Positions 3,001 through 38,492 of a stretch of DNA of 64,000 nucleotides are shown piece after piece. Made by a program: the position numbers and the translations under genes. Every line of letters starts with the position of its first letter. The first letter of the stretch is position 1. The DNA is from Hydrurus foetidus (lineage: Eukaryota), in contig UYFQ01000327.1 of assembly GCA_900617105.1 (NCBI GenBank), forward strand, positions 1 through 64,000, written 5' to 3'. Below the pieces are notes generated by a model. It saw only the letters and a program-made list of their open reading frames with translations. It ran no database searches and had not been told where the DNA came from.

Positions 3001-5980
3001 AAAAAAAATGAAAGTGAAAATGAAAAGGAAAATAAAAATGAAAATGTAAAAGAAAATAACAATAATAATGAAAATAAGAATTTAAAAAGAAATAAAAATG
3101 AAATGGAAATCAAAATAAAAAAATATATAAATAATAAAAAGGTGCACCTCGACTCTCCGCCAATAATCAGTTATGAGACCAAATGGACGGGCTTTGCCAA
3201 GAAGTATATGTTTCCATATACAGTCTTGTTTAGCATCGTACAATCGTGCCATCGTAGCAGGATGTTTCCGTAACAGACTCAGTCTTTCAGATGCAACTAG
3301 ACTGCGAGTCTGAGAAAAAATTACATATAGTTAAGACCATACTAACAAATAACCATTCGCAAACAGTAAAGTCACCTTAATATGACGGGCACCCCATGAT
3401 TCGATGGAACTGTCACTAATCGGACTCCCCACAACATCGTAAAATCGGCTCTCGTAGAGATCGGCAGGAGCCGTAGTAAAAAATAAACGCAATGAACCAT
3501 AATTACATATAATAGGTGATGGTAACATAGCCATTAACTTACCCCTTTCATATGCAATTTGTGATGTAGTCCCTTGTAAGGATTTAGAATAGGGAATTAG
3601 TCTTTTTATCAACTTTTCCATCTCGGTCGCTCGATTAATAGCTTCAGAATTACCCACAGGATCGACAATCAAATGAACAGCCGCTCCGACATTATCATTA
3701 TTAACTTCGGTATTCTTCGTTACATCTAGATATGACAGTAACTCATTAATATCTTTTATATTAGGTGTATCATCATTGCTTTGTTCATCATATTCCTTCC
3801 GTTGAGCAAGATATGCTACACCACCTATTTTTCGTCTCATTTCCATTGTGTACATACTAAATATAAATTTTGCATTTTGCTGAAATCTACGGGCGTCAGG
3901 ACCACCACCAAGAGATAGCATATGCTTAGTGTAATTTGCCATTGTGATCATATTGCAATTAACATCACTAGGACACCCACGCCCATATGGAAATATAGTA
4001 GGAAAACATCGGGGTAAATAATATTCTGGATTTTTGTATTGACAAACAAATTGATGATTAGCCGTACGCTGAAAAGACTTGGTACGGGGATCGACCAACG
4101 CATTACGAATATCTTCCAATAATGAGACGAGTGTATTAGGTGCCGCTAACAGCAACTCATGCTCTTGTCCACTAGATGCTACAGTAGGAAAAGTTATGTT
4201 AACAATCAGAATATAGCGAACACATAGACACTTGTTCAAGGCAAGCATACGTACCTGGATTACAAGACGGTATATCGCCAGGAAACGGAATTTCAGCTAC
4301 ACCTTCATCAAGTTCGAGTTCTTCCGCATCAGATACATCAATAAAAGGAATATCAATACACTCCGAATTATTGGCCCAATCGATAATTTCTGACGACCAC
4401 TTCAACTTTACATCCTCATATAAGTGGTTATTGTGTTTCAACCAGATCAGCGCATTATAAACACGATTGGGACGATACGTGTAATCTTTGTTAAGTTTAG
4501 TAGTGGCATGTCGAAGTACAGCCGTACAATCAACAGTTGGCATGCGAGGTAGCTCCTTAGCAACGCTAGTCAGATCATTGATAATTGTGTAACAAGTAGC
4601 GCCCCGTGATTTAAAGTGTTTCCCCCCAGCCAGACTAATATTAGTAACAGCACTATATATGTTGATCATACTCTCCTCAACAGAAGTTAGATTTTGGAGC
4701 TCATTGGGTATAGATCCAGTAAATAAACCACGAAATAGACACACCTTAGGACAAACAGACTCGCCACCATCCGAGTCGGTACTTTGATCATCTGATAAAT
4801 TTGTTGAAACATCTTCGCAACTTATCCCCCCTCTAGATAATTCATCATTTGTAACCTTATTCAAAAGTAATTGGCGAGAACACGTCCGACATATAGTATC
4901 CACATCACGTATAAGCCCATCCTTAAAAAACGTATCCAGCTCTCGATTGAATATGGTATCATATCTGCTCTTACAACGTTCAGGACTAACCACGTTATTG
5001 AACTTAGTGGCGATCCCAGACATTTCTAGCAGGTCGCCAACGTCTGCAACAGATACACAACCAACGCGACTACCCTCTAAACCACAAATAGCACATACTA
5101 TGAATTTCGATAACGAATCATAGGAATCACTATACGCAATAGCGTCAGAGGCGCTATGTGAAGGCGCAGGATCCAACAAACAACGAGGTATTTTCCTACG
5201 AAGCCGAAGAGAATCTCCGTAATGTTTGAATGGTGACGAAACAGAGAGAAGACGTTTAGTAGCAAGAATAGCACGATTCCGAAAGTCGACTCTAGGCAAA
5301 GCAACCCGGGGTTCATTACGTGAATGCTGAATGCAACCACGTCGAGTTGCAATGATAGACTGATAACGAACTCTCTGTCTCTTCACAGAAGCACAAGTAG
5401 CGGTTACCCTAGCACCAACCGTAGTATTAGTTACAGCAACAGACACACTATCATGAATACTGGCCAAATGTGATGAGTGATGAACTGGGTCGAGAATGCA
5501 ATCGTAATGATTGTGGCCAGTGTAAAGAAGATAAAAGTTATTGACACGATTACGACCCGGCAGGGGCGTTGCAAAAGTTGTCATCCATTTCATCCAACGG
5601 CTGACGATATGAGGCTGGAAAACGTATATATCAACAGGATACATGTGAACCATACAAGCCAGCTCAATCGCACCACCCCAGGACGTACTCTTCGACATAT
5701 AGTTGACGTAGCGTTCAATACTGTAGTGCTCCAGAGCAATGCACTCAACAACTGAATAAACAGATCCAGGCCCAAGATAAAGCAACGTAGACGGATGAGA
5801 TCGAATGAAATCGTTTATCTCAGAACGCAACAACTGAGGAGTGTAAGACGACGTCTGGTACATCCGATTAAGAAAGAAACAAAACGAATGATACAAGCAA
5901 CTATTATCACCGAGCTGTTTTATCACAAGACCACCAACAAGATCCCCATCGACGAGATCAACATCACAACTGGCATCCAT
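1..5980 (-). CDS. Helitron RepHel protein: OTU protease-like, DUF6570-like, HUH Rep and PIF1 helicase domains; five exons (5980-4255, 4178-3376, 3309-3148, 2673-1789, 1713-<1), one frameshift near 2455
   Basis: OTU motifs GDNSC, WGGAIEL, HNHYD. Rep motifs LFFTTAPAD, spliced RVE|FQARGTPHVH, and YVASYASK. Helicase motifs MFVSGEGGTGKSFLI (about 709-665), VIIDEISM and FTGDFYQLKPV. GT-AG introns at 4179-4254, 3310-3375, 2674-3147 and 1714-1788 restore the reading frame. Confidence 0.92.
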
Positions 5981-6039
5981 GACAACCACTATGTGACAAC
6001 CACAATGTAGCAAGAACCAGATGTGTAACAACGAACTAC

Positions 6040-6246
6040 TGTGGCTCCCTCAGGGTCTGCTACCCCATTCAGCCGATTAGATGCTGTTTCCACCTTAGTA
6101 CCTTCGTGTTCACAGCCACGACTATCAGTCACTAGCTAGTTTGTGCTGCTTTGCAGAAGTTACTAGCGTACCTTCTGTTGCATCCCTAACTAACTAGCTC
6201 CTTTTAGCCTTTAGACTTCCCTTCTCTTTTGCCTTCCAAGGTCACA
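6040..6246 (+). repeat. Gypsy 5' LTR
   Basis: TGTGGCTCCC...GGTCACA, direct repeat of 14445-14651. Confidence 0.97.
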
Positions 6247-6337
6247 GTAGATCTACTTCCTTTAGTTTCTCTTCTTTAGACCCTATCCTCCTACTCTAAG
6301 CTACCATCCCCTATACTACCCTGCTGCCCTAACTCAC

Positions 6338-6681
6338 CCGATTATCTGCGTGGAGAATCTCGAATTTTATTCGAAATTCTCGTTTACGAGCAATTCTTAC
6401 TATCGCGAGCAAGTCTCCGAAGTCTGGTCGCCGTAAACTTAGTCACTCGGTTTCTCCCGATACTTGACTATTTTGTGGTTGCTTGAGTTTCATCTCAGCA
6501 ATCCCATACCGATTACCTGCGTGGAGAATCTCGAATTTTATTCGACATTCTCGTTTGCGAGCAATTCTTACTATCGCGAGCAAGTCTCCGAAGTCTGGTT
6601 GCCGTAAACTTAGTCACTCGGATTGAGATTTCTCTCCCGATACTTGACTGTCTTGTGGTTGCTTGAGTTTCATCTCAGCAA
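6338..6681 (+). repeat. Tandem duplication of about 170 bp in the Gypsy 5' leader
   Basis: CCGATTA(T/C)CTGCGTGGAGAATCTCGAATTTTATTCGA...CATCTCAGCAA occurs at about 6338-6501 and about 6508-6681. Confidence 0.9.
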
Positions 6682-6986
6682 ACCCAAATTTTTGTGCAGA
6701 GTTAACTCCGTTAACTTCTGCCCATCTCTCGCCGCAAGCTTTGCTTGGCTGACGTCCGTGGATAGCTTTGTCTTCCACGCCGTTCTCGTTATTGGTCGAG
6801 CAAGTCTCCCAATCCCGACTTATTTTGTACGGATTGATTCACTCATCCGTCCAGAACCTGCTTGACTTATTGTGCTTCGTCTAATCGCCTGTTTGATTTT
6901 CATCCAAACGGCACGAGGCGAAGCCCTTGAAAATTTTTTTTGGCGACTCTAGCCATTTAAATTGTCAAGACATAAGTCATCTAACG

Positions 6987-9900
6987 ATGCCGTTATCCGA
7001 TGACTCTTCGGAGATATCGCCGTCGCTCGCCGAATTGACTACTCAATTAATTCCGGCAGCGACGACAGTTGCGACAATCCAGTCGACAACAACAACACCG
7101 ACAGCAGTAGCTGCGTCTGACAGAACTGATCGCCCGGTATTCCCAGTAACAATACTGGGACCTACCAACAGTTCCAATCAGGCGCCGCCTAATCGTCATA
7201 ACGACGACGACGACGACGAAATTCAGACAACGCGACAACATGACAATGTCACGTTGCGTTCGTCAGACGCAAATCGTCAGCAAACACGCCATAACGGCAA
7301 CCCTGACCGGGATGATGACGACGACGATACCAACCCTCGTCGCCGTGTAGATTCACCCCCACAACGATACCTCCGTCGTCAGGGCCTCGACAGTTACGAC
7401 AATTCAACTCGTCGGAATAACCTCGTCGACGGAGATGCAACGGGCGACGACTCGCCCACTCACAACCAACAAAGTGGTAGCGAAGACGGTGGTGACGGTA
7501 ATCGTTACGATAACCGTCAACGCCACGAGTCTAACCAACGTCAATACAATGACGATAATCGAAACAACAACGATTATCGACGTTCTAATGATGACAATCA
7601 AGGTCACAACGACAATCGTCGTACCTACGATGACTCCAACCCTCCCAGGGACAACCGTAACACGGGCCCTTCATACGGTACGGAGCACCGTAACGACAAC
7701 CGTTACGATAACGATGGACGTCAATATAACGATGATCGCCGAAATGACAATCAACGTCAGAACGATGATCGTCGTTATAACGACAATTACCGTCAGAATG
7801 ACGACAACCACGACTACGACAACGATGGTCGTCGCGGCTATGACACCCCATTCAACGACGACAACAGACGTCAATATGACGATCGACGCAACATCGACAA
7901 TCGTCGCAACGACGACAACCCACGTCAGAATGACGGGCGTCGCGATTACGACTATCGCCAACAAGACGACAACCCTAACAGGGATAATCGCAGAGACACT
8001 TTCCAACGTCACAACGATAACCCCCAAAGGGATAATCGTAATTACGAGGATTCTCGTAGTAATGACAACCCAAACAGGGGAAATTATTCGACTAACAATC
8101 GCAGTTTCGATAGTTTTCGCGACGACAACAACGACAGTTTCCGTCAGGGAGACAACAACCCCAATAGGAGAAGTCGTCGAGAACCCCCACAGGGTCAAGA
8201 TGACAGTTCCCCAAGGGACTATCCTCAAAGAGACAATCGTCGCCAACAGGATACCTCCAACCGGGGCAACCGTAATACTGACGGTCGTCGGTACAACGAC
8301 AACCAGTACGAGGACGAACGTGCGACTCCACGGGCAACCGTACGCGTCACCGACAATCCTCGACTACTCGAGAGTCGCGATACGCGCATCCCCGAAAATG
8401 TGGAGACAATAACCCGCACAGCGGACGCCCCTCGCAAACGCGCGTCACCTCCACAAGAGGGTCCCACATCACGCAAGCGACAAGCTTCCCCACCAGGGTC
8501 ACCGGAACGGCCAACATACGTACGTACGTTCACCGGTGACAAGGATTACAACCCACAACCCCAACGAGTCATCCAGGAGATCCCAAGGGAAATTCGGGTT
8601 CCTAACCCACTCCCCTTGGATCCTCCAGACATCGTGGTACTGCCTGCAACGGATCGCATAATCGATTACGAGCAGCAAACAGCAGCATTCCGAGCTGCAG
8701 GGGGCGGTCCCGACCCCAATGCAGCGCACCCGGTACGACCCCCGATACCACGGTACATACACGATCGTACGTCACCGATCAACGTACCCGCGGTACAGTT
8801 TGCCACACCCAATGCGGCACCTACAGCGCTTGTAGTGGGTGGCCGGGCGGTGGACGATGGTTCCCGACCCATCTCCGCTATTGCCTTGCAAACGGTACTT
8901 TACGTTCTCAACGTAAATGCGTCAGGCATTATTGGACAAGAGGCTGCACGGGAGTTTTTCGAACACTCCCAGAGGTGGACCAACAACTACGATGTTGGTC
9001 AAGTCATCTCGACTAAAGCAGTCAGGTGTATCGATGATCAGATCCATACGGATCAAGATTATCCATACGCGGAAGAGACACGTAAAATGTGGCTCCAAAC
9101 ACTGACTGTCCCTCAAGTAGCGCAATTAGTCCTGCGCTACTTTCGCGCGGACACACAGCTAGGACAGTCACTAGCTGAGCATTTCTCGGAAGTCCATCTC
9201 GCCTTTTGTTACAACAAAAGGGAGATTGAGATGCGCTGCATGACTCAGTTTCGTGAGGTGGTGGAGAACCATGTACAAGTACATGGCCCACTCAGCACCT
9301 CCGACCATGCTGCACTCACTCTCATCTTCGAGAAAAAGATGCCTCTTAACGGTGCCATCACCGCCAAATACAAAGAGCATAAACGCGTCAATCCGCATGA
9401 CGTGGACGATTGGGAATTCGCGATGCGTCGCTTTTTCTCCCAAGTCAATGCGGTACGCCAACTTCAGCTACACGTAGCGGCTTTTGGGGACCCCAACGAC
9501 ATTTATTGTCACCCCGCTACCCAAAACCCATACGGGTTGTCTCTCACGACGAACCCCAAAACCCTGTTGGTTGGTGCGGCACTCCCAGCCTTACCACCGC
9601 TGGCACTGCCAACAACACCACTCCGACAGTGTAACTCGTGTGGACATATGGACCATCTGCTGAAAAACTGCCCACACATGTGGATGGTGGATTCCAACAC
9701 CAACCACAATGTGCCGTGGGAGCACTCCAACATGGGTCGCACGTGGGCACAATACGGTCATGCGACCTACCCTATCAATGATCGCATCCCTGGTCTGGGC
9801 CGCTTTAAAATCCACATACCCCGTCGTGAAACAAATTTCACTGATGAGGTACTGAATAAAGCTCAGCCCCCAGGGGGTGGCCATAAGAAAAAATACCAAG

Positions 9901-11105
9901 GGAACCCCAATCATGGGGGGAACTATAATCGAGGTCCCACCAACAAACCGCGATACGGTTCTGGGGGACAAAACACCACGTTGGCCAACAACACCTCCAC
10001 CAACGCAACCCACAGTGGTCTAACGCCCGCAGCCGCATATGATGGTACGTTACCTCATGTCACGGTGGTGGAGTCCTTGGTAGTGGCGATACATGCTACT
10101 AGCACATGTACACCTACCGATACACCATCACCTGCATGTATACTCAACACTGACATACTTGTAACGAATACATTGGAGGTCTCAACCCCCTCCAATACAG
10201 TATCGGATAACACTAACAATGTTCTTCCCACATGTCTTCACGTGTTACAGCCACCCCATACCTCCCTGCCTCTAATCTCGGAGGTGCTGGCGGCATGCCA
10301 TAACCAGACCGACATGTCGGAAATACCGCTCATAGGTACGTTACCGTCTGACTCACTTGTAGCAGCGGTACACTCAACACATCCTAATGAACTTCTTTCA
10401 TTATTGGTGTTCAAGGATGAACGAAGAACCTTGCAGGGACACGCCCCCACCACAGCCGCGTCAGCACCCCAGTCCACGGGACTTAGTCTTACAGCGCACG
10501 CGCTCCTAGACACGGGTAGCATGGCCGGCGATTTTGTTTCCAAATCACTGCTTGTCTCACTTGATGCACTTGCTCATTGTTATGTGTCTTCAACAGCACT
10601 TAACGTTTGTAGCGGTCTTGATGGAACTTGTTATAGGTGTAATACCTTAGTCGATTTAGGCCTTACTTTTTTCGATGATAGTAATATTAAGCACACTATC
10701 TATATCACTTTTAGTGTTAATCCTTTTGCACAATTGGATCTGATCATCGGACGCAAGTCCCTGAATCAACACAACTTGTTTGTGCTGACGCCGAAACGTA
10801 TGGGCTTTGACCCTACGTTAATCGAAACGTCACCCAGCCCAGATGACATCGGTCTACTTCCCTTAAGGGCAGAGTCCGACATCGGTACAGATTCACATAC
10901 CGACGTCTGTTGTCATCATAGTGACGCTGTCGGATCGCGTAGTCCTTGTACACAGTGTCGCCTAATTACCGACACTGCTGACAATGGAGACGAAGGTCAC
11001 TCGAGCACCCACCGTATTCCAACAGTGGGAGAAGAGTGGGGTCCATCTGCGCTATGGACGGGCAGTGGTCTTAACCGCCCCCTTCTGAGACCGGGACGAG
11101 AGTGA
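6987..11105 (+). CDS. Gypsy Gag-protease with a long N/D/R-rich low-complexity N-terminus
   Basis: First ATG at 6987 (MPLSDD). CCHC knuckle CNSCGHMDHLLKNC. Aspartic protease motifs LLDTGSMAGDF and DLIIGR. Confidence 0.88.
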   Translation: MPLSDDSSEISPSLAELTTQLIPAATTVATIQSTTTTPTAVAASDRTDRPVFPVTILGPTNSSNQAPPNRHNDDDDDEIQTTRQHDNVTLRSSDANRQQTRHNGNPDRDDDDDDTNPRRRVDSPPQRYLRRQGLDSYDNSTRRNNLVDGDATGDDSPTHNQQSGSEDGGDGNRYDNRQRHESNQRQYNDDNRNNNDYRRSNDDNQGHNDNRRTYDDSNPPRDNRNTGPSYGTEHRNDNRYDNDGRQYNDDRRNDNQRQNDDRRYNDNYRQNDDNHDYDNDGRRGYDTPFNDDNRRQYDDRRNIDNRRNDDNPRQNDGRRDYDYRQQDDNPNRDNRRDTFQRHNDNPQRDNRNYEDSRSNDNPNRGNYSTNNRSFDSFRDDNNDSFRQGDNNPNRRSRREPPQGQDDSSPRDYPQRDNRRQQDTSNRGNRNTDGRRYNDNQYEDERATPRATVRVTDNPRLLESRDTRIPENVETITRTADAPRKRASPPQEGPTSRKRQASPPGSPERPTYVRTFTGDKDYNPQPQRVIQEIPREIRVPNPLPLDPPDIVVLPATDRIIDYEQQTAAFRAAGGGPDPNAAHPVRPPIPRYIHDRTSPINVPAVQFATPNAAPTALVVGGRAVDDGSRPISAIALQTVLYVLNVNASGIIGQEAAREFFEHSQRWTNNYDVGQVISTKAVRCIDDQIHTDQDYPYAEETRKMWLQTLTVPQVAQLVLRYFRADTQLGQSLAEHFSEVHLAFCYNKREIEMRCMTQFREVVENHVQVHGPLSTSDHAALTLIFEKKMPLNGAITAKYKEHKRVNPHDVDDWEFAMRRFFSQVNAVRQLQLHVAAFGDPNDIYCHPATQNPYGLSLTTNPKTLLVGAALPALPPLALPTTPLRQCNSCGHMDHLLKNCPHMWMVDSNTNHNVPWEHSNMGRTWAQYGHATYPINDRIPGLGRFKIHIPRRETNFTDEVLNKAQPPGGGHKKKYQGNPNHGGNYNRGPTNKPRYGSGGQNTTLANNTSTNATHSGLTPAAAYDGTLPHVTVVESLVVAIHATSTCTPTDTPSPACILNTDILVTNTLEVSTPSNTVSDNTNNVLPTCLHVLQPPHTSLPLISEVLAACHNQTDMSEIPLIGTLPSDSLVAAVHSTHPNELLSLLVFKDERRTLQGHAPTTAASAPQSTGLSLTAHALLDTGSMAGDFVSKSLLVSLDALAHCYVSSTALNVCSGLDGTCYRCNTLVDLGLTFFDDSNIKHTIYITFSVNPFAQLDLIIGRKSLNQHNLFVLTPKRMGFDPTLIETSPSPDDIGLLPLRAESDIGTDSHTDVCCHHSDAVGSRSPCTQCRLITDTADNGDEGHSSTHRIPTVGEEWGPSALWTGSGLNRPLLRPGRE

Positions 11106-14071
11106 ACACAGTAACACTTAACGCCGCGAGCGTGTTGCCGTGCGGAATCAATCTCAATGGAGATGAGATTGATGATGACAAAACAGATGCGTTCGGTCCG
11201 TTTCTTTCTGCATTGATGAAAGACCCTACCCCAACAGGTAGGGCGAACGACGTCATCTCGACAATCACCTTTGGTGGGTCGGAAGCTCTGCAAACAGCAT
11301 GCAGAGCATTATGTACCGAATTTATTGACATCTTTCAAGATGAGGTGGCCCGTGAACCGGCCCGTATACCTCCTTTTGATATTGATCATAAGGCGGCACA
11401 ATGGGAAGTACCTGGTAACAGGACTCCGCTCCGCCCACAATCCTCACAGAAGGAAGAGGCGATTCACAATAACCTTCAGGATCTGATACGGATCGGGGTG
11501 GTTGAAAAGTCTAATGCGGTATACTACAGTCACCCTGTAGTAGTACAGAAGTCACCCGGACAATACCGTGTATGTATTGACTTCCGGCCACTTAATAACT
11601 GTACGGAGTCGGCCAGTTGGCCACTCCCAAACATTCCAGCAATGTTTGAACGCATTGGCGCTCGCCAACCTGACATCTTTGGGGTCATGGACTTAACGTC
11701 CGGCTACCATCAAGCACCCCTTACAGCATCAGCCAAAATCCTGACTGCATTCATATGCTTTTCTGGAATTTACCAATTCACTCGATTGCCTTTCGGCCTC
11801 AAACGTGCCCCATCATACTTCCAGGAGATGATGGCCACGGTTGTCCTTGCGGGCCTTTTATATGTAACATGTGAGATGTATCTCGATGATTGCATTGTAT
11901 TTGGTAATGGACCTGACGAGTTTCTGCAGAGACTTCGTGATGTCTTCATCCGTTTTCGAGAGAAGAATTTATTCTTGAAAGCTAAGAAGTGTAAGTTCGG
12001 AGTTACACGCCTCGAATACGTCGGACGTGTGATCTCCAAAGAGGGGTTATCTATGTCGGCTGAGAAAATAAAATCTGTTTTAGATTTTCCTCGCCCTAAA
12101 ACCGTTACTGCCCTTAGGGGATTTCTCGGTTTAGCGAACTATTTTAGAGGGTTCGTACCAAACCACTCCAACATAGTAGCACCGTTACATAAAATGACGG
12201 TGTCTACAACTCATAAACATTCCAGAGTAACTTGGAATGCTGAAACCATTAAAGCGTTTCAAGACATTAGGCAGGCAATCTCTCAATGCCCCCTGATGCA
12301 CTTCATTGATAATGTATCACCAATACATTTATACACCGACGCATCTGATTATGGTGTAGGTGGTGTACTGTTCCAAAAAGTTGGAGATGAAATGAAACCC
12401 ATTTCATTTGTGAGTAAGTCACTCACCTTCTCACAGTTGAACTGGTCAACAATCCAGAAAGAAGCTTATGCTATCTACTTGTGTTGTACAAAACTTGATC
12501 CACTATTACGTGATCGCAAGTTTACGATTCACACAGATCATAAAAATCTGACATACATGAAATCCTCCCCTAACTCGATGGTAGGGAGATGGTCCATGGC
12601 TCTACAAGAGCTCGATTACACAATCGCATACGTGCGAGGGTCTGAGAACACGGTAGCGGACGCTATGTCCCGCCTCTGTGCTAATCTCTCGGACCTTGTC
12701 ATCAAGGTTCAACCAGCCACCACTGGCACAGAACCGGATAACTTACCGGGCCCGTTTTGCGGCGCCCTCAAGGTCATCCCAGAGATGACTGATACGCAGC
12801 GCGACGCACTCAACATGTGCCACAACAAGTTTGTTGGACACGGGGGCGTTAAACGCACCGTCGAAAAGCTTTTAGGCTTACCCATTCAGTGGGAACACAT
12901 GGTTCAGCACACCCACTTGTTTATACAACAATGTGCATGCTGCCAGAAGATGAACGCGACCCGCGTACCGATACGTGTACACAAGTACGTTACTTCTGCG
13001 TACAAACCGTTCCATGTATTGAACATCGATTTCATCGGACCCTTCCCCGATGCCTCACACGTTCTTGTCATCATCTGTGCTTTCACACGATGGACAGAAC
13101 TATTTTGGTGTGCGGATAATACGGCCCAATCGGCTACCGATTGCCTTCTCCAACACTTTGGAAGATACGGTGCACCCCAAATGATCAGATCTGATCGGGG
13201 TTCACATTTTGCTAACGAATTGATCAAACAATTCCTAGTGTCAACGGGTACACCCCACAACCTGACACTAGCATACTCTAAACAAGAGAATGCTATAGTT
13301 GAACGAGTTAATAAAGAAATTAACCGGTACTTACGTTCGTTCCTGTATGATACAAACGACGTGTACCAGTACAAAAACTGCTTACCGTTTGTACAGCGCA
13401 TTTTGAATTCTTCAATTCACAGCAGTACCAATGCCTCCCCAGCAAGTTTATTGTTTGGTAACCAAATCAATCTTGATTCGGGCATACTTTCACCATTCCC
13501 ACAATTACCGGAAGTGGAAACTTCCGCATCGAAAGTGGTCTGTGAGATGTATCACATCCAGGATACCCTGATTGCCCAAGCACAAACTGCTTTGCGCACA
13601 ATGGACGCGGCTCATGTTGCCACAAGTCCACAGGATATAACGGTTTTTCCCGTAGGTTCATATGTGTTGGCTAGATATACCACACAACCGCCCACACGGT
13701 TACACACGTTGTGGCGGGGACCGTTTCAAGTGATATCGATTCACAATTCTGATTATACGTTGTTAGATATAACTACGAAGAAACATAAACATCTTCATAT
13801 TAGTAATCTTAAACAATTTGTTTTCAACCCGAAACATACGGATCCTGCTGATGTAGCACGCCGCGATTATATGGAATTCTTTATTGATTCCATTCTTCAG
13901 CACCAAGGCAATTCCAGGCGCAAAACCCAAATGCGGTTTTTAGTCAAATGGACTGACTTTGATGACTCGCACAATACGTGGGAGTCGTGGAAGAATCTTC
14001 GTCTTACAGACGCTCTTCACACATATTTACGCCTTCACGGCATGTCGAAAATAATTCCGACAGAAAAGTAA
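11102..14071 (+). CDS. Gypsy Pol: RT, RNase H, integrase, chromodomain (-1 frame relative to gag)
   Basis: RT motifs RVCIDFRPLN, LPFGL, YLDD. RNase H motifs TDASDYG, TDHKNL. Integrase HHCC, SDRGSHF, ERVN, GPF. Chromodomain FLVKWTDFDDSHNTWESWKNL. Confidence 0.97.
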   Translation: MNTVTLNAASVLPCGINLNGDEIDDDKTDAFGPFLSALMKDPTPTGRANDVISTITFGGSEALQTACRALCTEFIDIFQDEVAREPARIPPFDIDHKAAQWEVPGNRTPLRPQSSQKEEAIHNNLQDLIRIGVVEKSNAVYYSHPVVVQKSPGQYRVCIDFRPLNNCTESASWPLPNIPAMFERIGARQPDIFGVMDLTSGYHQAPLTASAKILTAFICFSGIYQFTRLPFGLKRAPSYFQEMMATVVLAGLLYVTCEMYLDDCIVFGNGPDEFLQRLRDVFIRFREKNLFLKAKKCKFGVTRLEYVGRVISKEGLSMSAEKIKSVLDFPRPKTVTALRGFLGLANYFRGFVPNHSNIVAPLHKMTVSTTHKHSRVTWNAETIKAFQDIRQAISQCPLMHFIDNVSPIHLYTDASDYGVGGVLFQKVGDEMKPISFVSKSLTFSQLNWSTIQKEAYAIYLCCTKLDPLLRDRKFTIHTDHKNLTYMKSSPNSMVGRWSMALQELDYTIAYVRGSENTVADAMSRLCANLSDLVIKVQPATTGTEPDNLPGPFCGALKVIPEMTDTQRDALNMCHNKFVGHGGVKRTVEKLLGLPIQWEHMVQHTHLFIQQCACCQKMNATRVPIRVHKYVTSAYKPFHVLNIDFIGPFPDASHVLVIICAFTRWTELFWCADNTAQSATDCLLQHFGRYGAPQMIRSDRGSHFANELIKQFLVSTGTPHNLTLAYSKQENAIVERVNKEINRYLRSFLYDTNDVYQYKNCLPFVQRILNSSIHSSTNASPASLLFGNQINLDSGILSPFPQLPEVETSASKVVCEMYHIQDTLIAQAQTALRTMDAAHVATSPQDITVFPVGSYVLARYTTQPPTRLHTLWRGPFQVISIHNSDYTLLDITTKKHKHLHISNLKQFVFNPKHTDPADVARRDYMEFFIDSILQHQGNSRRKTQMRFLVKWTDFDDSHNTWESWKNLRLTDALHTYLRLHGMSKIIPTEK

Positions 14072-14444
14072 GTTCCCCAGGAACGACCTACACATTATCT
14101 TTTGAAGATTCCTCCTCATTTTTACAACGTTACGTTGCTTTTCAGGAGGTTTAGTCAGTAAAAATCTGACATAAATGTGTAGGGGAACACTTAGTTACAA
14201 CACATCTAGGCACTCTCGTTTCTCGCTTTCCCCATCTCTCACATGTACAAATATCTGTATTTATTGTACGCATTTATTTCTGTCTTTTATTTATTTATTT
14301 ATTTTTTATTATTACCTTTTTCTGCATTTTTCTCTCTCACGCTGGAGTCATATTTGTTTGTTACACACTGTAGATAGAAACTCACCAAGAGAGAGAGAGG
14401 GAGAGGGAGAGAGAAATGAGAAAACGAGAGATAAGTAGGGGTAG

Positions 14445-14651
14445 TGTGGCTCCCTCAGGGTCTGCTACCCCATTCAGCCGATTAGATGCTGTTTCCACCT
14501 TAGTACCTTCGTGTTCACAGCCACGACTATCAGTCACTAGCTAGTTTGTGCTGCTTTGCAGAAGTTACTAGCGTACCTTCTGTTGCATCCCTAACTAACT
14601 AGCTCCTTTTAGCCTTTAGACTTCCCTTCTCTTTTGCCTTCCAAGGTCACA
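14445..14651 (+). repeat. Gypsy 3' LTR
   Basis: Matches 6040-6246 and is preceded by the polypurine tract ...GAGAGATAAGTAGGGGTAG. Confidence 0.97.
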
Positions 14652-14861
14652 CTACAGTATATCCAACCGACGAACTGATATCGATGCGCAACACAAAGAA
14701 TGAAACATGAAAAAAAAAAACCTGAATCGGGTCCCAAAAAGTAGGAGACATACTCCATACTGACTCAAAAAAGCAAGTATGTTTTGGATTTCGCTATATA
14801 AAGGTGGAACCACCATACGGTTAATCCCCCAATTGCGTTGTAGGACTACCGTTAGTTACGA

Positions 14862-15560
14862 CAAGGGGGTATAGAAAGGAGGTTACCCCCTCTTGGTTCT
14901 ATTCCGCTCTCAGAGGTAGGTCCCTTTAGGGGGAGACATCCCCGTGCGACCTCACGGCTTTTCACCCGCGCTCTCCGTTGCATCCTAGATGCTCAGTTCG
15001 AAGAACAGAGAATGGAATAAATGCGGCGTTATCTTACAATGGGTGCGCCTGCGCGCCTGGGCTCGCCCGTCCGCCCTCCCCTGCTGTTCTTCCTTCCGAA
15101 CCAAGCTTGGGTGTTGGGGGCGGACCTTGGGTCAGAGTTTCCTTCACCAACTGGCACGCAAGTGGTCAGATAACATTGCACAACATCTTATACTATCACC
15201 ATAAAAACGTAGGATTGGTTGGCCACGGGGTAATAAAATGCGTCACACTAGATAGACTAAGGTTAATCAAAAGATTGTGAGAGAACACTCTCAGTGAAGC
15301 GCGTCGACTACGAGCGGGCACACTATATTAATAATTCGAAAAAGTGCTGAATAATTATTCGAAAACGTAGAATGACACTACAACGACTAGGGGGACTTAT
15401 TCCCGCTGCATGTCGGTCCAACGCTATCATCGTCATCGTCCCCCGTCCCGTCCCTCGGTATCTCCCCATCCGCAGCCGCCCCTTTAGGGACCGGCACCGG
15501 TCAGCGGCCTTAGCTCCTAGCCGCTCCAGAGAACCCATACTACCGTCCGGTATCCTTTAA
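14862..15560. mobile_element. Unclassified 699-bp non-coding insertion with 6-bp direct repeat TTACGA
   Basis: Absent from the sister LTR at 20570-20852. TTACGA occurs at 14856-14861 and 15561-15566. The insert starts with hairpin CAAGGGGGTA...TACCCCCTCTTG. Confidence 0.85.
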
Positions 15561-15835
15561 TTACGAGGTGTGGTACGCACGTACGCACCGAGTCCGGTTA
15601 ACGGCGCTACTCTTTGTATGCATGAAAATGAATGAGTAGTTTAGCGAGCGACACTTTAGATTGTAGGTGACCGAATAAGTGTCGTGGCTAATGAACAGGG
15701 ACATTAGTCACAAGTTTAAATAACAAGTACTGATCGAGAGCAGTCGATTTTTTACGAGTCTTGGAACGTGATACACCACCGGATAGTTCTAGAAACACCG
15801 GATTTCCAACATATTTAAACTGACAAGGAAGCATC

Positions 15836-18800
15836 GTGATGCCTCCAAAACGCGCCTCTTATGCTAAAGATGCAAAGGAATGTATGCTTCAGATCGGGAA
15901 GTACAACAATGTCGTGGCCTGGAACCTCGACGTTAGGGCCTCCGTAGGAGCTACCTACGGCAGCAGCGCCCTATTCCTGACAACGGACGCCAGGATTACG
16001 TTGTCACCTACCCCACCGGCGATGGAGATCCAGCGCCAGTCGGAATGTCAGCTGAGCTGAAAGCGGACCTTAAGAAGGACGCCTTCACTAGCAGACAGCG
16101 AGAGATGCGAAAGCAGAAGGAGGACCAGAAGAAGATATACAGTGTCCTGTGGATGAGGATGTCACCTGCCTCACAGAGCAAAGTGAGAGAGCAGGCCGAA
16201 TTTGAAGTAGCAGACGTCAGTAAGGACTGCGTCGTGCAATGGACTAACATCAATGGTGCACAAGCCCCTATGGTCCGGCTGAACAAGAGGGATTAAATGG
16301 CGCGGTACAACGTGCTCAGACAAGGTGATAGAGAACATGTTGCTGCTTTCAAAATCCGTTATGACGCGCAGGTTCAAGCGGGTGTTGGAGCCGGTCTCAC
16401 CGCCCTCGACGAAGAAACGATGGCTATGGATTTCCTCCATAAGCTCGACCAAAAGAGATTTGGCAAGCTACTGACGCACATGAGGTGGAACGCACTGTTC
16501 AACAATGCCGACGCTTATCCGGCTACCCTGGCCGCAGTAGTCACGATCGCTTCAGACTAGCCAGATGAAGGTCCAAGTTCCGGGAGGTCCGACCCCTCAG
16601 GCAACGATACCCACTCTGCCTTCGTCACCGCAGATTCTTGCTTTGTTACGGAAGCTAAGGATTCTGGAAAGAGAGGTGCAAAAGCTCCGGCGGCCGACAA
16701 AACCGCCCCAGGGAAGAAGAAGTCATTAGAGGAAGTTGAGTGCTAAGTCTGCGGCGAACTGGGACACTACGCGCGCGACTGCAAGAATAGAAAGTCTACT
16801 GCGAAGGCTCTAGTCGCGCAATCGGCGGTGGAAAAGGGCGATGACAACGACGAGTATGAGAGCGAGGAGGAGGACGAGACGGTATATGTTACAACCTTGG
16901 AGACTGTTCTGTTCGCCAAGGACGACGTGCTTCTCGACAGCCAGGCCTCTATCAACGTGTTCTGCAATCGAGCCCTCTTGAACAACGTGAGGAAATCGGA
17001 TAGAAACGTTGTGCTCAATGGCGTCCAGTCTGGTGCCGCCGGGGTGAAGATCACACAAGAAGGTGACTTCAATAACGTGGGATAGGTATAGTACAGCTCA
17101 GAAGCTACAGCAAACATCTTGTCATATGCCGTCATGATCGACGGCAGAAATCGGGTGAGGTACGACCAACGCAACGACAGATTCCTGCTAAGGCCAGTCG
17201 GGAGCAACATGGTATACTCGTTCTGTAGGAAGAACATCCCTGGTAGTGAAGGTCGATTCTACTGCTGCAATTTCAACTCAATGGTGAGCGAACACGCGAC
17301 GACTTATCCGACAGACGATTGCGTGTTGATAGAAACCGAGACTGAGAACATGTCGCGATATACAAAGCGCGAAATCGAAGGAGCGTGCAAAGCCAATAAT
17401 TTGCTCGCTAAGATGGAATTTCCCCTGGTTTCTCAAGCAATCGAGATTGCCACACGCGGCGTCAACTTTACAGTAACGGGTACAGACTTCCAGATAGCAA
17501 ACAATATATGGGGTCCAAATATCGCGTCCTTAAAGGGTAAGACGAAGAAAAATCGCGGACATCCATATTCCGAAACCAACGCTGCAGTAGGAACAAATTC
17601 TATCGGTCGACGTCATGTATGTTGAGGGTGTACCCTCGCTAATCGGCCTGGCGACACCATTTGGTCTCACTATGGCAGTGTCGTTGCTCAGTCTCGATTC
17701 TACACACGGTTCGAGGTCGACTAGTATCATCAGGGATGGAATCTTGGAATTTATATCGACTTTGTCGTCACGGAACTTCGTGACTCGACTCATTATGACT
17801 GACGGTGAGGGTGCAGTGGGATAGATCACTAGAGAGCTGAATCAAATGGGGATAGAGGTCGACATCAGTGGGGCTGGTGGCCATGTTGCTCGTATAGAGC
17901 GTAAAATCCAAACGGCAAAAGGAAGGACGAGAACAATCATGCAATCCGACTATCTCCCATACACACTAACCCGTCTTGGAGTGGCAATGCTAGTACTATC
18001 CTGCGTTTCTAGGTTGAACTATCAGTCATCCGGAACTGGTGGCAGATTCTTAAGCCCGAGAGTCGCGTTCTCAGGACGTCAAGTTGACGAGACCCTAGAC
18101 TTCAGAGCGAGCTTCGGGGAGTACGCACAATACACTGTAGCCAACACCGATAGGTCCATCGCACCACGCATGGAGGACTGCATTGTAATGCTGCCTACAG
18201 GCAACAGGACGGGATCCATGAAGATGATGTCCATCAGGACTGGTAAGCTTGTGACGAGGGATCAATTCAAATTACTCCCCATGGCATCCTCTGTTATCAC
18301 CAGGCTTAACGAGATGGCAGCTGCAGAAGGAAGGATCACCGGCACTAGATCTAGGATAGTGTATGATGCAGAGCGAGGGTTGGAGAAAGACGACGTGACG
18401 TATATCCGGCCAACAACCGAAGACGACGGACCACTCCCGTTCATCCCGGCGGAAGCCAGGGACAGTTACGGAATCAGTCCGCTTGCCGACGCTAACATAG
18501 ACAACAAAAAGAGCGACAGCTACCGGTACGAACCGTACTCAGCTGAGGATATACATGGACGCACAGTACCCTGAGTGCTACCCTCCGCAGCGTCTCATGG
18601 AGCTTAACGCGGATGACCTCGACGAGGGCCCACCAGTAGAGTTCGAAGAGCCCGTTACGGAAGTCCATAGGCATTCCGATGCAGCAATACCGGCCGCCCC
18701 ATCAAGACCAAGAGGTAACTCGGATATCAGGCTCGATACGGTGAGTTCGACACCCACCGCCAGTACCACGCCTCTTCCACTTAGGAGGAACCTGTCGAAC

Positions 18801-20432
18801 CATTACCAACCTGGGGATACGACAGTCCTAGCCAAAAAACACGTGATGAACATCACAGTCAAGGAAGCGCTAAGGAGTAGGGGTGTGGAAGCAGTGCGAG
18901 TCATACTCAAAGAACTATCACAAATGATAGACAAAAAGGTATGGACGCCTGTTCACATGTCCGTACTCTCCAATACGGAAAAACACGGTATTATTCGTTC
19001 GCAGATGTTTCTCAAGGAAAAGTACTTACCTACTGGTGCATTCCAGAAACTTAAAGCTCGACTAGTCGCTGGTGGAAACCATCAGGACAAGGACCTCTAC
19101 GACGACCTCTCATCACCTACTGTCTCCACGAGTGTGGTTATGACAGTGTTCGCCATAGCTGCTCATGAGAAGAGGAGCGCCGTTGTGGTCGACATTGGGG
19201 GTGCCTATCTGAATGCTAGCATGAACACAGGGGTGACCGTGCACATGAGACTCGATGCTAGCATGTCCAGAATGATGACAAAGATAGACCGACACTACAA
19301 CCAGTTCACAGACAACAGAGGGTGCATCGTAGTACGGCTCGACAAGGCATTGTACGGGTGCGTGGAATCAGCGGCGTTGTGGTACGAGAATCTATCTGCT
19401 ACCCTAGCTGGGCTAGGGTATAAGAAGAATGACTACGAGGCATGCGTGTACAACAGGACTGAAGGAGGGGTGCAGTGCACGGTTGCATTCCATGTAGATG
19501 ACTTGATCATCACCAGCGAGAACAGTGAGTATGATCGATGATCTGTGCAAGGGACTCAAGTGTGAGTACGGAGAAATAAACAGACGAGATGGGCCACTGC
19601 TGAATTACCTAGGAATGTCGTTCGACTTATCAGTGCCAGGTGAAGTGAGCATGGGCATGAAAGGGTACACCAACGATGTGATACTATGCGGGGGTATACC
19701 GGGTAAAGCGCGTAGCCCGGCTACTGACGGCCTATTTGACATAAGAGATGGTACGGAACTCGTGGTGGAATCGACCCGGGTATGGTTCCACAGTATTGTT
19801 GCGAAGCTATGGTTCTTGGGGAAGAGAGCAAGACCAGATTGTTTAGCAGCATTAGCGTACCTCGCTACTCGTGTCACTCGCTGCACTGCTGATGACGTCG
19901 AGAAACTTAAACGTTTGTTGAGATACATAGCTGATACCAGAGACAGAGGTGTCGTATTCAGACCAGGCAAATTTGGTTTATCGATGCAGCATACGGGGTG
20001 CATCCGGACGGTAAATCACACATAGGAAGCTGTGTGGTGATAGGTGACTTGGGTGCGGTGCACTGCAAATCTAGCAAGCAGAGTATAGTCACTAAGTCGA
20101 GCACAGAAGCCGAACTAATCGCACTATCTGACTTTGCAAACCAAGGCCTCTATATCCGTAATTTTCTTATCTCGCAGGGACACAAGATGAAGCCGGTGAT
20201 GATCTATCAGGACAACACTTCCTGCATGGCCTTTGTCGAGAGAGGACGCTCAGGAGCAGAGCGCACACGGCACATCGCTATCCGAAACTTCTGGATACGT
20301 GAGCGGGTCACCACTGGAGAAGCTGTCATAGAGCATATGGGGACGAAGGAGATGTACGCGAATGTACTGACGAAGCCCCTCAAAGAAGCACAATTCGTAT
20401 ATGAGAGAAAGTGTCTTACGGGACAGGAGTAA
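15836..20432 (+). pseudogene. Copia-1 gag-pol, broken by stops and frameshifts
   Basis: Knuckle C*VCGELGHYARDC near 16741. Protease LLDSQAS. Integrase IMTDGE and HVARIERKI. RT KARLVAGG, LDKALYG, HVDDL. RNase H SSTEAEL and YQDN. Confidence 0.93.
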
Positions 20433-20569
20433 TCATAACGTGCATTACTGCAGATGTAATGAAATCTATTGCGTGCTGTTTGATGTATTGTGAAATCTAC
20501 TAATGTATTGTTACAAGCTGTTTGAATATAAATAATTCATGATGTTTAATTGCGGTAGCCCTAGGGGTG

Positions 20570-20852
20570 TGTTGGATATTGCGTTATAGGACTACCGTTA
20601 GTTACGAGGTGTGGTACGCACGTACGCACCGAGTCCGGTTAACGGCGCTACACTTTGTATGCATGAAAATGAATGAGTAGTTTAGCGAGCGACACTTTAG
20701 ATTGTAGGTGACCGAATAAGTGTCGTGGCTAATGAACAGGGACATTAGTCACAAGTTTAAATAACAAGTACTGATCGAGAGCAGTCGATTTTTTACGAGT
20801 CTTGGAACGTGATACACCACCGGATAGTTCTAGAAACACCGGATTTCCAACA
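20570..20852 (+). repeat. Copia-1 3' LTR (283 bp)
   Basis: Direct repeat of 14832-14861 plus 15567-15811, with about 2 substitutions seen. Confidence 0.95.
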
Positions 20853-29666: not shown

Positions 29667-32600
29667 TGTTGATGCCGACGGATCAACTGGGAAGAATCGA
29701 AGGTCCTGATTCAGTTTGGTTGAATTAGATTATGTCAAAGGAGTGAAGATGATCATGTGATTCAGTAGAAAGCACCTGCAGGTTGGTGAGTTGTCACTTG
29801 TCCGTAATCATGCAATGTTTCAGTGGTTGTGTGATTGCATTCAACATCATGTGATTGTTATCTACTGTGTCCTGAATGCAGTGATTCTCGAGTTTGTCTC
29901 GGTAGAGAAAAGCGGATTGTGTTTCCACGTTCCGCAGGTGGCGCGCACACGTCTTGTTATATCGACAGTATCAACACACTCTCTCAATTTGGCTTTTGTT
30001 TACCTTACTTGACTAGACAGCGGCACGTTGCGCAGAGGATTTCTGGAAAGATTTGGCTGGCGATTGCGGTGTGTGGACAAGAAGTGGCATGAGTACCTGG
30101 TGTGTCTTAGCCGGTGGGGGTTTGGTGAAGAAATCAGCTAGATTATGTTCGCCTTTACGCCACTGTATATGAAAATGTCCTTGGTTTACGCGGTCTCTGA
30201 TCTAATGGTATCGCATATCGATTAATTTTGTCCTTTTTGCTTTGACTGAGTTTATCGCCATACCCACTGCGCACTGGTTGTCGCAGAGTATTAACGTGGG
30301 TGATTGCGTGTAGCCCATGTTTGAGAGAACCTGCCGCAGATATTCCCCGTCTTGGGCCAGAAGGAAAAGCGCCGCATACTCTGCTTCTGCGGCACTAGCA
30401 ACCACTGATGGTATAATGGTGCTGACTGCATGGATAGCACCATTGATGTGATGAGGCGAGCCAGCATTTCCTAGATAGCAGATGCCCCCAGCGACAGAGC
30501 GTGCTTTTGGCCGAGATAGGTAGGAGGCGTCTGCTTGAATGAATAAGGTCATGTCGCACGCGTGGTACACTAATTCGTTGTTAGGGTATCGCGCGCAGTA
30601 GCGTAAAAGGCGGTCGGCAATCTCCTCAACTTGCTCTGTGGGGGCCGATTGCAGCGATGCGATCAGATTCACTGTGGGCAGGAGTGTGACATCGACGCCT
30701 CGGGCGTAGAATAGCCGAAATCGTCTACAACTAGCGCGAAGGTTGTTCCGTTTGATGAGTGTCTGAATAAGCATGGAGTGTCGGTCTGATGGTACTGATG
30801 TTTGCGTAAGTGCTCAATGAGTTTTTGTTGTGCTAAGTACCCTGCCTGCGGCAGTCCGTACATCCCTTTATTAACTTCGAACAGAATGGAATTGTTGGAC
30901 ATGAATCGCTCTAATTTGTGGGCCGCCAGAGTGGCAGGGGGAATAAGTTTACGTTGGATACGAATGTATTCTGGCCGGGATAGTGGCGTATTCAAGTAAT
31001 AGTCCTTGATGTCTAGTGTCATCCAATTGCTGTCATCGCTGACAACTGATTGCAAAAGGATTTTGACGACAGGCATTGCGGCGGTGTTTGCAGAGGTCTC
31101 TCCCGGGTAATTGATCCTGTCACCGCCGATGGTGCCTCGTACTCTGTATGTTCGGTTACCTGTTGCATCTTCCTTCTCTTTAATCTGCGGATTGTAGTAG
31201 CTGGTGTCTTTTCGACGATGCATTGGTTGCTCATGAATGTGTAGGGGTTTCATTGTGTTTGATGAAAATAGTCGGTTAAACTCTTCAATCTCAGCTTGCC
31301 GCCACTGTAGTTCCTGGTCACCACGAATGGCCTTTGCGTATGTTAAGGGTGACCCGTCTGGCGCCAAGTTCAGGGATGATACAGCTGATGCTGATCCCGC
31401 GGTTGTTCTACTGCGTGTCACCGGTGGCTCAGGCTGCGTTTTTAACAGCGTAGTTTTTGAAACGGGGAAAGGTATATTTGGTGCAGTGGCCTCTGTGGGT
31501 AGCATGACGTTTTCTGTCAGGTTAACGCAATGGTCGGACTGCGCCGCACTGTTTATGGTCTGAGGTGCAACTGTAACTGACGATTTCTCGATTAACAGCG
31601 GAAGCGGCGGTGCTTGTTCTTGATTGGGGTCTGCTGGTAACACCCTCTGTTCTGCGTCCGTGTACTGTAGTTGTGACGACGGTTGTTGCAATTCAGTCGT
31701 CGGAATGACGTCGGGTAGGGTAATGGGTTCGGAAGGTGCTATGGCGATTTCAGTTGCTGTCGGAGTATCTGCAAGTTGCAGAGTCCTTGGGCAGAAAGAT
31801 TTCACAAACGCCTTCAAGTCCTTGAGCATTGTATGAGGAACATCATGCAGTTGGCGTGAGTGCGCTGTTGCAGGGTGTGATGTTGCTAATGTGGATATTG
31901 CTGCTGCCAAGTCTTTGATTGCAGCTATGGCAACGTCATGGGGTCCAATATTAGGTAGTACCACTTTGTCGAAGATCCAACCCAGTGTGTCAGTTACTCT
32001 GATGGATTGTGTGTCGATTGACCACACACTAAAGCAGCGATAATGCTGTTGCGCTGGTCCTAGGTAGAAGCCGAGCACACCATGTGGTGCCCAAGTACCG
32101 CGGACAGTTGGCTTGTCGTGGATAATGACTTTGGTGCCTGCGGGCGCTATGGGATGCGCTCGAAAATCGAACTGTCGCCCGTGTAAGCCCTCATAAGCAG
32201 AGATGTTGGGATTAGGACTGTAGGGTATAAGGTGATTCAAGCAAAGTTCTGCTTGCGGGAGCAGTTTGTCCCACAGAATCATTGGAAAGTCGGTGGATAC
32301 TGTGCATAAGGTCGCGATGAAGTGGTTCTTGAATGTTCTGATGGCGCGCTCTGCTTTCAATGATCTGTGTTGTCCTGGAGGGCAATATTGTATTGAGACA
32401 TTGTTTTTTGCTGCATATTCTCTACTGCTAAGGACGTCTCGTTGTCAAGCCTTTGAAACAGTGGCTTATGCCCAACCTTGTCCCAGAATGCCAGAGTGTT
32501 TTTGTATGCGTTGACGTAGTTTGACTGGTGACGCGATGGTATAGCTTCGCAATGGATGTATCCGTCTAGTACTGATACGAACACGTATTCGGCACCGGAT

Positions 32601-36183: not shown

Positions 36184-37680
36184 CTTGAGAAGCAAGGATT
36201 TTCTTGTCGAAGGGCAGTCCTTTTTTCAGGGTGAAATCTGCTACTACTAACTTCCACGCAGATTTTTTATTTTTGATGTTAGAATACATACCGTCAGAGT
36301 GCTCACATCAAGCCACTTCACGGAGCCCGCAACTTAAATCTGCACGCTGGACTACATATCTAGAAATATGCTGAATAGACGACCGTTACTGCCGATAAAA
36401 AAGTTGCATCGCAGAAACCTTCAGTTATAGCACTTCACGAATCAGGGCAATCATTTCCATCACAACTTTGTGTGATTTCTCGTGCCCCAACTTTTTTGCC
36501 GAGCAGCTTTTTCGTGGAAAAACTGAAGGCTCGAGAAACTACAGATTTTCTTAAAAACTAAGGTTTTTGGTGTAATTTTCGTTTCCCGAACGCACCCTTT
36601 GGGTTCCTTATGATAAATGCCTGGGATTGCCATATAAATTTACGAATAAACCCTTATATTAGAGGAGTAATAGCCAAAAGGCGGAAGCTATCGGACCGCC
36701 AAAAAAGTTGACCGTAATCCGACACAAAGTCGGAAACGTCGGTTGTGTCAGAACCTAAGCTGTGAGCTGTGAGATGTGAGCTGTGAGGAATTGGCCCTAT
36801 TCCAACTCGTTGGAGTTGGGAGTTGAGGGTTTTGGAGTTGGTAAAAATAGCCCGTATAATTTTGATGGGCTTTTTTACCCACTCCATTTTCGTTTTCAGA
36901 CTCCAAAATTTAAATCGTGGAGTTGGACCCGCACCTTTTGAGTTGGGGTGAAACACCCAGTAAAATAATGTAAAACTCAAATTCTTGTGGTGTACCGGAA
37001 AATCCGGTGTTCACATGACTGACAAATTTTACCAACTCCAAATCCCCAACTCCTCAACGACGGGTGCGTTCGGTAAACCGTGAAACCTTCATTTTTCGAG
37101 GTATTTCTGAAATTTTCCACGAAGGCCTTCACATTTTGGGAAATCATGTTCGGTAACAAACCTACATCATCACATCTGGAGGAAAGTAGTGATTCCAGGA
37201 AGAACGAGTATTTGTTCCTTTTGCGGCGATGAGGATTCATTTGTCGTAGAGAAACTTCTACCGAACGGAATGACGTGAGATTTCAAACTCTCTTGAGGTA
37301 AGCAGCGCGATTTCCCTACTCTTGACGGCTTCTGATGCCACAACTTTTCATGGGGAAACTAGTTGAAACAACTCTCATCGAATGTCACTTGTTAAAGCAG
37401 GACTTTTAGCATCTTGGACTGACGTCAACAAGAAGGTCTTGATTGATGTCTTCGCCGCTTTCTCGGGAGGGTGTTCAAGCAGTGAGCAACGATTGATCGA
37501 TCCGATATCCCCACCAGGATCCCAGATCCCGGATCTCCGATCGATCATCCCAGAAGTTTGGCACAAATGAAATGTTCAATCGTACGAGAACAGTGTACGC
37601 TCTGGCGGGGACGCTGGAACATCTTCATACTGTACGTGTAAGGAGTGAGCGTAAAGTATGGGATGAAGTTGAGACTGTTC
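36184..37680 (+). repeat. Copy A of a composite repeated segment containing Harbinger-type TIRs
   Basis: 36184-37097 matches 48419-49352, 37484-37508 matches 50898-50923, and 37514-37679 matches about 52266-52444. Confidence 0.9.
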
Positions 37681-38492
37681 TGTTGGTAACCGTGGCACAA
37701 TATGTTGTACACATATAACAATCCATACCGTTTTGGCTTCGGCCAATTACAGCCATCAGTATTGCGTGACTGACCGCAGTCATAGCTTACCGCATTCACC
37801 ACCATAATTTAATCACAACAATCGTCGAATAGTCCAATTCGTTTGACACGTTTGATATGCAGTACGCGATCAACAGTTGTGATTAGATCTCTTCGCTTGA
37901 CAATGGAGAGCACGACGCCAATTAATTTACATAGTCATATACGACAAATTTTCTTAGTATGGCGAAGATCGATAATCGAGGCGTACGGACAGTCCTGTAA
38001 TATCTACAACCAACACAGACTGCTGGGATATTGTCAGACTAACCACTAACGTAGTTACGTCTGTTGTATAGTAGTAGATATAGTAGTATAGATACACGTT
38101 AGGTAGTACTGTATACATATATGTATATGCGTAACTGTACGTACACCATAGAACGTACACTGTACATACCAGATATGGCCGTTGGCGATACATCCCATAT
38201 TCGAAAGTATCCTTTCAGTGCCAACAACTGCTATGACCTTTCTTGCAACGCCACACATGATTTCACCTCTACCTTGCTCGCCACCTCGTTTGCCAGGTAG
38301 CCAATCATATGTTAGTTGCATATGTAGGTTGCCAACTGCAGATCTTCTGTATCTTGTAAACCTAGGCAGATCTTAATCGATATAGCTTGCACGCCGACAC
38401 AGCGTTCTAGCCGAATCTTGGAGTTCTACTGCAGTAGCCTCCACACCAGTTGGACTATACGTCATCAGGTGATATCCTTAGCCAGATCCACA

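Follow-up and report, generated by a model that had tools for sequence, protein, structure and literature searches.

Sequence signatures of probable Tf1-like self-priming in two distant Copia lineages of aquatic eukaryotes

How does reverse transcription start in an LTR retrotransposon whose primer-binding site (PBS) carries no TGG and pairs with a stretch of the element's own LTR? This question is raised by Copia-1, an element located in a 64,000-nucleotide stretch of the Hydrurus foetidus contig UYFQ01000327.1 (hereafter the window, positions 1 to 64,000 of the forward strand). We describe the element and its close copies, the pairing in distant relatives, a second lineage represented in the window by Copia-2, and the priming mechanisms that could account for the observed signatures.

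The Copia-1 element and the pairing beside its 5' LTR

Copia-1 is classed here as a decayed copy from a large Copia lineage that occurs in aquatic eukaryotes, and it has the TG...CA LTR pair, the polypurine tract, the gag-PR-IN-RT-RH order and the RVT_2-type reverse transcriptase (RT) of a Ty1/copia element. Its 3' LTR is complete (20570–20852, + strand, 283 bp, TGTTGG...CCAACA) and is directly preceded by the polypurine-tract position AGGGGTG (20563–20569, +); the junction GGGGTG|TGTTG is found repeatedly among its relatives. A 699-bp insert (14862–15560), flanked by a TTACGA duplication (14856–14861 and 15561–15566), interrupts the 5' LTR, and no ORF of at least 120 aa is present in it; an Rfam search of positions 14600–16000, including the insert, gave no match at E<=1. 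To the left of the insert lies a detached piece (14832–14861, +) corresponding to LTR positions 9–38, which matches the start of the 3' LTR at 29 of 30 bases, while the remaining part of the 5' LTR (15561–15811, +), comprising U3-R-U5 and ending in CCAACA, is identical to the 3' LTR at 248 of 249 positions over 15563–15811. For the missing first 8 nt, no upstream TGTTGGAT was found between positions 1 and 20570, and no target-site duplication was found.

The gag-pol region (15839–20432, +) is decayed, with numerous stops and frameshifts, and comprises a zinc knuckle, PR, IN, RT and RNase H in Copia order. It matches RVT_2 with E=5e-22 and the intact relative P0002 in seven pieces, six of them at 63–89%. 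In P0002 the domains follow the order PR 378, IN 700, RT 1088 and RH 1403, and the intact relatives of the lineage have a single ORF of about 1550 aa with the same Copia order. These intact relatives carry RNase H motifs in which the fourth acidic position is N in 34 of 36 cases. The last motif reads ANxLTK in 34 of the 36 polyproteins of the lineage and in the window copy (20359–20382 region), and the Copia-2 lineage has D in the corresponding motif in 38 of 40. In other RNases H, the Asp of the last motif is the most tolerant of the catalytic residues.

Immediately after the 5' LTR, whose end (CCAACA, 15811) is set by the direct repeat that it forms with its 3' counterpart, lies the PBS position TATTTAAACT (15812–15821, +), at offset 0 and without TGG. 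Together with AGTTTAAATA (15713–15722, +), the paired part of the predicted self-primer, it forms a perfect 10-nt inverted repeat with arms 89 nt apart. The initial annotation, made on the letters of the window, had claimed this 10/10 pairing directly after the LTR and the absence of TGG, and both observations stand in the window copy. A self-match of 10 bp has a probability of 0.00085 under a first-order Markov model of the element's own LTR (20,000 trials), and folds computed with three start points give the duplex pair probabilities of 0.85–1.0. Since A15722 pairs with T15812, extension of such a primer would run straight into U5. The PBS arm is 9/10 A/T, with a TTTAAA core.

Public runs that share up to 0.49 of sampled words include freshwater or sediment metagenomes, and close copies of Copia-1 were compared in four public runs. 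In the runs X1 and X2 the family has a high copy number and several subfamilies. Among 93 contigs from the four runs, no change is listed within 15812–15821; the variation begins at 15821/15822, and U5 is divergent just 5' of the PBS. Position 15712, an A in the window copy, is T in every contig covering it in X1 and X2, and 15822 is G or A; T15712 can pair with either, so the close copies can form an 11-bp duplex. Counting against self-priming, one LTR subfamily in X1 and X2 (13 differences over 102 nt; depth 1839 of 5681) carries A>C at 15720, for which no compensating change at 15814 is listed, in contigs that do not link the LTR variant to its PBS.

Covarying complementarity at offset 0 in distant relatives

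A scan of metagenome contigs, for which 36 full-length polyproteins had been aligned, yielded 235 stretches that encode a relative, and 79 loci were obtained. Forty loci, belonging to 37 families, had enough DNA upstream of gag to be scored, and the other 39 were excluded. The LTR end of each relative was chosen by its match to TTYYAACA, blind to pairing. At this site, pairing of at least 8 bp with the element's own LTR at offset 0 was observed in 28 of the 40 loci (26/37 families) and of at least 10 bp in 19 (18/37 families), the length in the 28 positive loci being 8–16 bp. When PBS and LTR were swapped between families, 8 bp or more were reached in 37 of 1554 combinations (2.4%) and 10 bp or more in 7 (0.45%); the Copia-1 PBS itself pairs over at most 7 bp with the LTRs of the 40 relatives. 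When the PBS position was displaced, 8 bp were reached in 19 loci (−1), 2 loci (−2) and no locus (+9), against 28 at offset 0, and beyond +9 the pairing was at background.

Among the 27 families displayed, in which RT is 41–58% identical to that of the window copy, there are 24 distinct PBS 8-mers, and PBS positions 2 and 3 are almost always AA (25/27 each). The complementarity is thus element-specific and covarying, is placed at offset 0, and occurs without a tRNA-end PBS. Because distant relatives keep the pairing with different letters, the lineage likely primes with the 5' end of its own RNA. The initial annotation had held that intact copies with a TGG PBS, or without the complementarity, would refute its claim; a TGG starts the PBS in none of the 40 scorable relatives, the blind rule recovers pairing in the majority stated above, and no change within the PBS is listed for the close copies.

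The blind rule missed 12 of the 40 loci. In eight of these, a different CA/TA near the ATG, chosen post hoc among 68–82 sites tested per locus, gives 11–16 bp. One locus (L079) reaches 15 bp at the blind site only if G.U is allowed, which fits RNA pairing; another (L006) has the same PBS as L007, apparently without a matching LTR piece, and in L025 and L059 no duplex was seen. In L051 and L077 the 5' LTR seemingly ends in CAATA, not CAACA, directly 5' of the PBS. Scans of viral contigs gave no relative of either the Copia-1 or the Copia-2 lineage.

The two edges of the duplex are also informative. The PBS-side edge coincides with the LTR boundary, and the LTR-side edge falls at C|A in 15 of the 27 families (1.29 expected), is at most one base away in 20, and lies off CA in 7. 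Duplexes that start with A are preceded by C in 15 of 16 cases (2.72 expected), and the C|A edge is also found in five of seven rescued loci. A YCAYT motif with its A 10–18 nt before the primer end is present in 12 of the 27 families (0.56 expected); the oomycete initiator is given as YCAYTYY in PMC3599244, according to which it apparently occurs in a diatom as well. We infer from these edges that pairing is retained from the first transcribed base onward but not upstream of it. In Copia-1 the initiator-like site, assigned from the relatives, is TCACA (15708–15712, +; TCACT in copies from other runs). The initial annotation had placed the transcription start near 15713; because the duplexes of the relatives end at an initiator-like C|A, we predict +1 three bases upstream, at A15710, with a primer of about 13 nt. 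Across the families of the lineage the implied primer measures 9–16 nt, and the partner site lies 45–210 nt upstream of the LTR end.

Two RNA runs picked by their species label (X21 and X22) gave 0 and 4 reads on 15540–16140, all of them in U3. Upstream of the primer, a TATA box showed no positional consensus across the 27 families. A stem-loop in the last 60 nt of U5 had a mean z of −0.91, with 12 of 28 at −1.5 or below, against −0.54 and 6 of 28 in the gag control.

The Copia-2 lineage and other elements of the window

Copia-2 (29667–34755, − strand) has two identical LTRs, and its PBS position GTTGAATTA (34437–34445, −), at offset 0, pairs 9/9 with 34506–34498 (P=0.002). This segment is the paired part of a predicted primer (34498–34512, −) whose predicted +1 is the A at 34512. 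The difference in RT motifs from which the initial annotation had derived two lineages was confirmed, with KARLVAGG and HVDDL in the RT frame of Copia-1 and RVRGTIGGD and VVDDF in Copia-2. KARLVAGG and RVRGT...GMYGLPQAG are motifs that we take to be typical of diatom Copia. As a description, the occurrence of the trait in two lineages also holds, the two RTs being about 21% identical; in an RT tree of 48 rows the Copia-2 clade is separate (97/91), and Copia-3 and the Gypsy outgroup stand on branches of about 10 changes per column and are unplaceable, no named references being included.

The scan of genome contigs for relatives of Copia-2 gave 14 loci (L080–L093), nine of which were long enough to be scored, the short L089–L093 being left out. 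Eight of the nine show 8–13 bp of pairing, at LTR ends of the form CAACA, CAATA or CATCA that were picked post hoc among 37–98 sites; in L085 another site scored higher, and in L084 no pairing was seen. The swap control gave 1 of 72. In a positional check independent of pair length, 8 of 9 elements, Copia-2 among them, had a YCAYW 14–18 nt upstream of the primer end (0.6 expected). The implied primer in this lineage is 15–17 nt long, has 3–7 unpaired 5' bases and lies 31–95 nt from the LTR end.

Several features of these loci are recorded in their own right. The 5' LTR seemingly ends in CAATA, not CAACA, directly 5' of the PBS in L080, L082 and L086. In L080–L088 a gag stop codon is followed by a G-rich run just 5' of the pol frame, which suggests read-through or a separate start; in the Copia-1 lineage there is one ORF. 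L080–L093 are eukaryotic Copia contigs filed in bacterial MAGs of GTDB; most of the contigs so filed are probably binning contamination, although L088 lies in a contig of 162 kb.

Copia-3 (38032–45951) serves as an internal control, with a tRNA-type PBS, TGGTAGC (38493–38499, +), that has a self-match of only 5 bp (P=0.74). The element contains a 232-bp near-perfect palindrome (44964–45195, 91%), possibly a fold-back or an assembly artefact, and is flanked by a 0.93-kb direct repeat (36184–37109 and 48419–49362, 96%), whose copies are possibly the LTRs of an older element that received the Copia-3 insertion. A chromodomain Gypsy (6037–14654) has long open ORFs and LTRs that end in TA...TA (TAGTGTG...CACACTA), not TG...CA; the bases 3' of its 5' LTR lack both TGG and a self-match, the best being 5 nt with G.U allowed. 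Adjoining it are Helitron-like ORFs (3331–6049, −) with weak Helitron_like_N, DUF6570 and weak OTU matches. At 52603–63818, long ORFs carrying RCC1 repeats and a laminin-G-like domain are probable host genes, and no tRNA genes were found in the window.

Proposed self-priming, its alternatives and known systems

We consider it highly probable that elements of the Copia-1 lineage prime in the manner of Tf1, with the first 10–16 bases or so of their own RNA and no tRNA, and self-priming of this kind very probably operates in both of these distant, non-plant Copia lineages, as judged from the conserved, element-specific pairing. Under this mechanism, transcription would start at the initiator-like YC|A (A15710 in Copia-1) and the 5' end of the transcript would fold back onto the PBS. 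The RNase H of the element would cut after the paired stretch (after 15722), as in Tf1, and would free a primer of about 13 nt with its 3' end opposite the first base after the LTR, which RT would extend into U5. If the primer were copied during plus-strand synthesis, the PBS would be rewritten in every cycle, and such rewriting would explain both the joint change of the two sites and the stop of the pairing at +1.

The alternative that survives best accepts the duplex as real and conserved but gives it a structural or regulatory role, in packaging, dimerisation or translation control, and leaves priming to a protein, a host small RNA or the RNA 3' end. Our tests read sequence signatures alone, and the Copia elements of fungi known as GalEa, which lack a PBS, carry a conserved hairpin that the authors of PMC5445492 were unable to reconcile with the Tf1 model. 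Nothing about a generic helix, however, would make it stop at most one base from the LTR end (offset 0, 28 loci; −2, 2 loci) or place its other edge at an initiator-like C|A. An alternative PBS is not seen, and the partner of the GalEa hairpin is described in the same paper as lying downstream, outside the LTR. We regard this structural role as improbable.

Still less probable is priming by an internal or half-tRNA fragment, as in Osser, Bryco and Bianca, with the self-match as a secondary feature. Half-tRNA PBSs without TGG are known in Copia (PMC6317226), and the AA at PBS positions 2 and 3 in 25 of 27 families each could be read in the same direction. A tRNA primer would nevertheless keep the PBS near-constant, and the 24 different 8-mers in 27 families, each matching its own LTR and seldom those of others, count against it. 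Half-tRNA-primed Copia elements, defined by a conserved PBS that complements an internal tRNA segment, were considered as a class for the lineage and set aside, as they would not be expected to show this PBS diversity.

That the pairing is a chance product of AT-rich, partly palindromic sequence, the caveat already attached to the motif in the initial annotation and one to which the 9/10 A/T arm, its TTTAAA core and the AT-rich LTRs of the lineage lend some ground, was ruled out by the Markov null (P=0.00085), the swap control (at least 8 bp in 70% of own against 2.4% of swapped pairs) and the fall to background beyond +9, and has a negligible probability.

Self-priming has been proven for Tf1 and proposed for Tj1 and Tcn1 (PMC7175516, PMC4600332), PMC5006619 also belonging to the literature base on the subject. 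PBS pairing in Tf1 involves the first 11 bases, and the RNase H cut falls between bases 11 and 12 (PMC7175516). Tf1 and Tf2 of Schizosaccharomyces pombe, with the Tf1/sushi group, to which Tj1 and Tcn1 belong, resemble the present elements in what these sources describe: no tRNA PBS, a PBS that complements the own LTR, and about 11 paired bases. They are Ty3/gypsy chromoviruses, whereas the window lineage is Copia by its RVT_2 domain and PR-IN-RT-RH order; membership in the Tf1/sushi chromoviruses was rejected, the lineage having no Ty3/gypsy RT, no PR-RT-RH-IN order and no Chromo match. In contrast to Tf1, the implied primer varies from 9 to 16 nt across the families of the Copia-1 lineage, and the Copia-2 lineage would leave 3–7 5' bases unpaired. 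Tf1-type priming requires a U5-IR-like stem-loop beside the primer duplex, according to a title cited in PMC7175516 and PMC4600332; in the Copia-1 lineage, known here from sequence data, a U5 stem-loop shows no clear enrichment.

Within Copia, self-priming is predicted in 89% of 203 elements of the plant TAR lineage, including Houba and Osr-1 (PMC6317226, supplement file 3), by a signature of at least 10 bp of complementarity within 0–5 bp of the LTR end (PMC6317226). A self-priming Copia element is therefore not new in itself, and TAR shares with the present elements, as far as this source describes it, both the superfamily and the signature. TAR, however, is a land-plant lineage, and freshwater and sediment samples are the source of the present elements, which reach only 72–90 bits with RVT_2; these low scores and the aquatic protist context argue against TAR membership.

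GalEa is similar in being Copia without a tRNA PBS and in having a conserved pairing that begins at the LTR end (PMC5445492). Its partner lies downstream of the PBS position, is conserved in sequence and, per its authors, does not complement the LTR, while the partner in the Copia-1 lineage is found 45–210 nt upstream, within the LTR, and changes freely. A possible likeness to the diatom CoDi elements (Maumus et al. 2009, PMC2806351) is drawn from the Atlas clusters nearest to the Copia-1 RT-RH, which are eukaryotic and most commonly Bacillariophyta (3 members with a phylum label). The terms "primer binding", "tRNA" and "priming" have 0 occurrences in the main text of PMC2806351, the supplement of which may list PBS features, and the literature searched, outside subscription journals, GyDB and Repbase, held no report of self-priming in the Copia elements of diatoms, chrysophytes or other stramenopiles.

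EukProt entries for the chrysophyte Dinobryon divergens include two relatives of Copia-2 (60% and 57% RT identity). The nearest labelled relatives of these elements are stramenopile, and their host is likely a stramenopile living in fresh water. RT relatives at E<=1e-20 number 1073 and 1782 for the two lineages. A broader proposal, which we offer tentatively and hold to be somewhat less likely than its contrary, is that self-priming, instead of being an oddity confined to Tf1-like Gypsy and plant TAR elements, may be the normal, perhaps ancestral, start of reverse transcription in deep-branching stramenopile Copia, with a primer that overlaps the initiator, primer and PBS rewritten together, and dependence on tRNA lost (or gained) repeatedly. 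On this proposal, two lineages about 21% identical in RT would both self-prime, each with its own geometry, and such repeated loss (or gain) would follow.

Priming by a host tRNA counts as the hallmark of LTR elements, to which, in the literature searched, Tf1 is the sole proven exception and TAR the sole predicted one among Copia. A covarying self-primer signature in two abundant and very distant Copia lineages would make the exception common, and annotation based on the PBS would overlook such elements. Their natural variants, with primers of 9–17 nt, full or partial pairing and G.U tolerated, could be used to study primer cleavage and the frequency with which tRNA priming is lost, and the PBS would predict the transcription start of these elements to the base.
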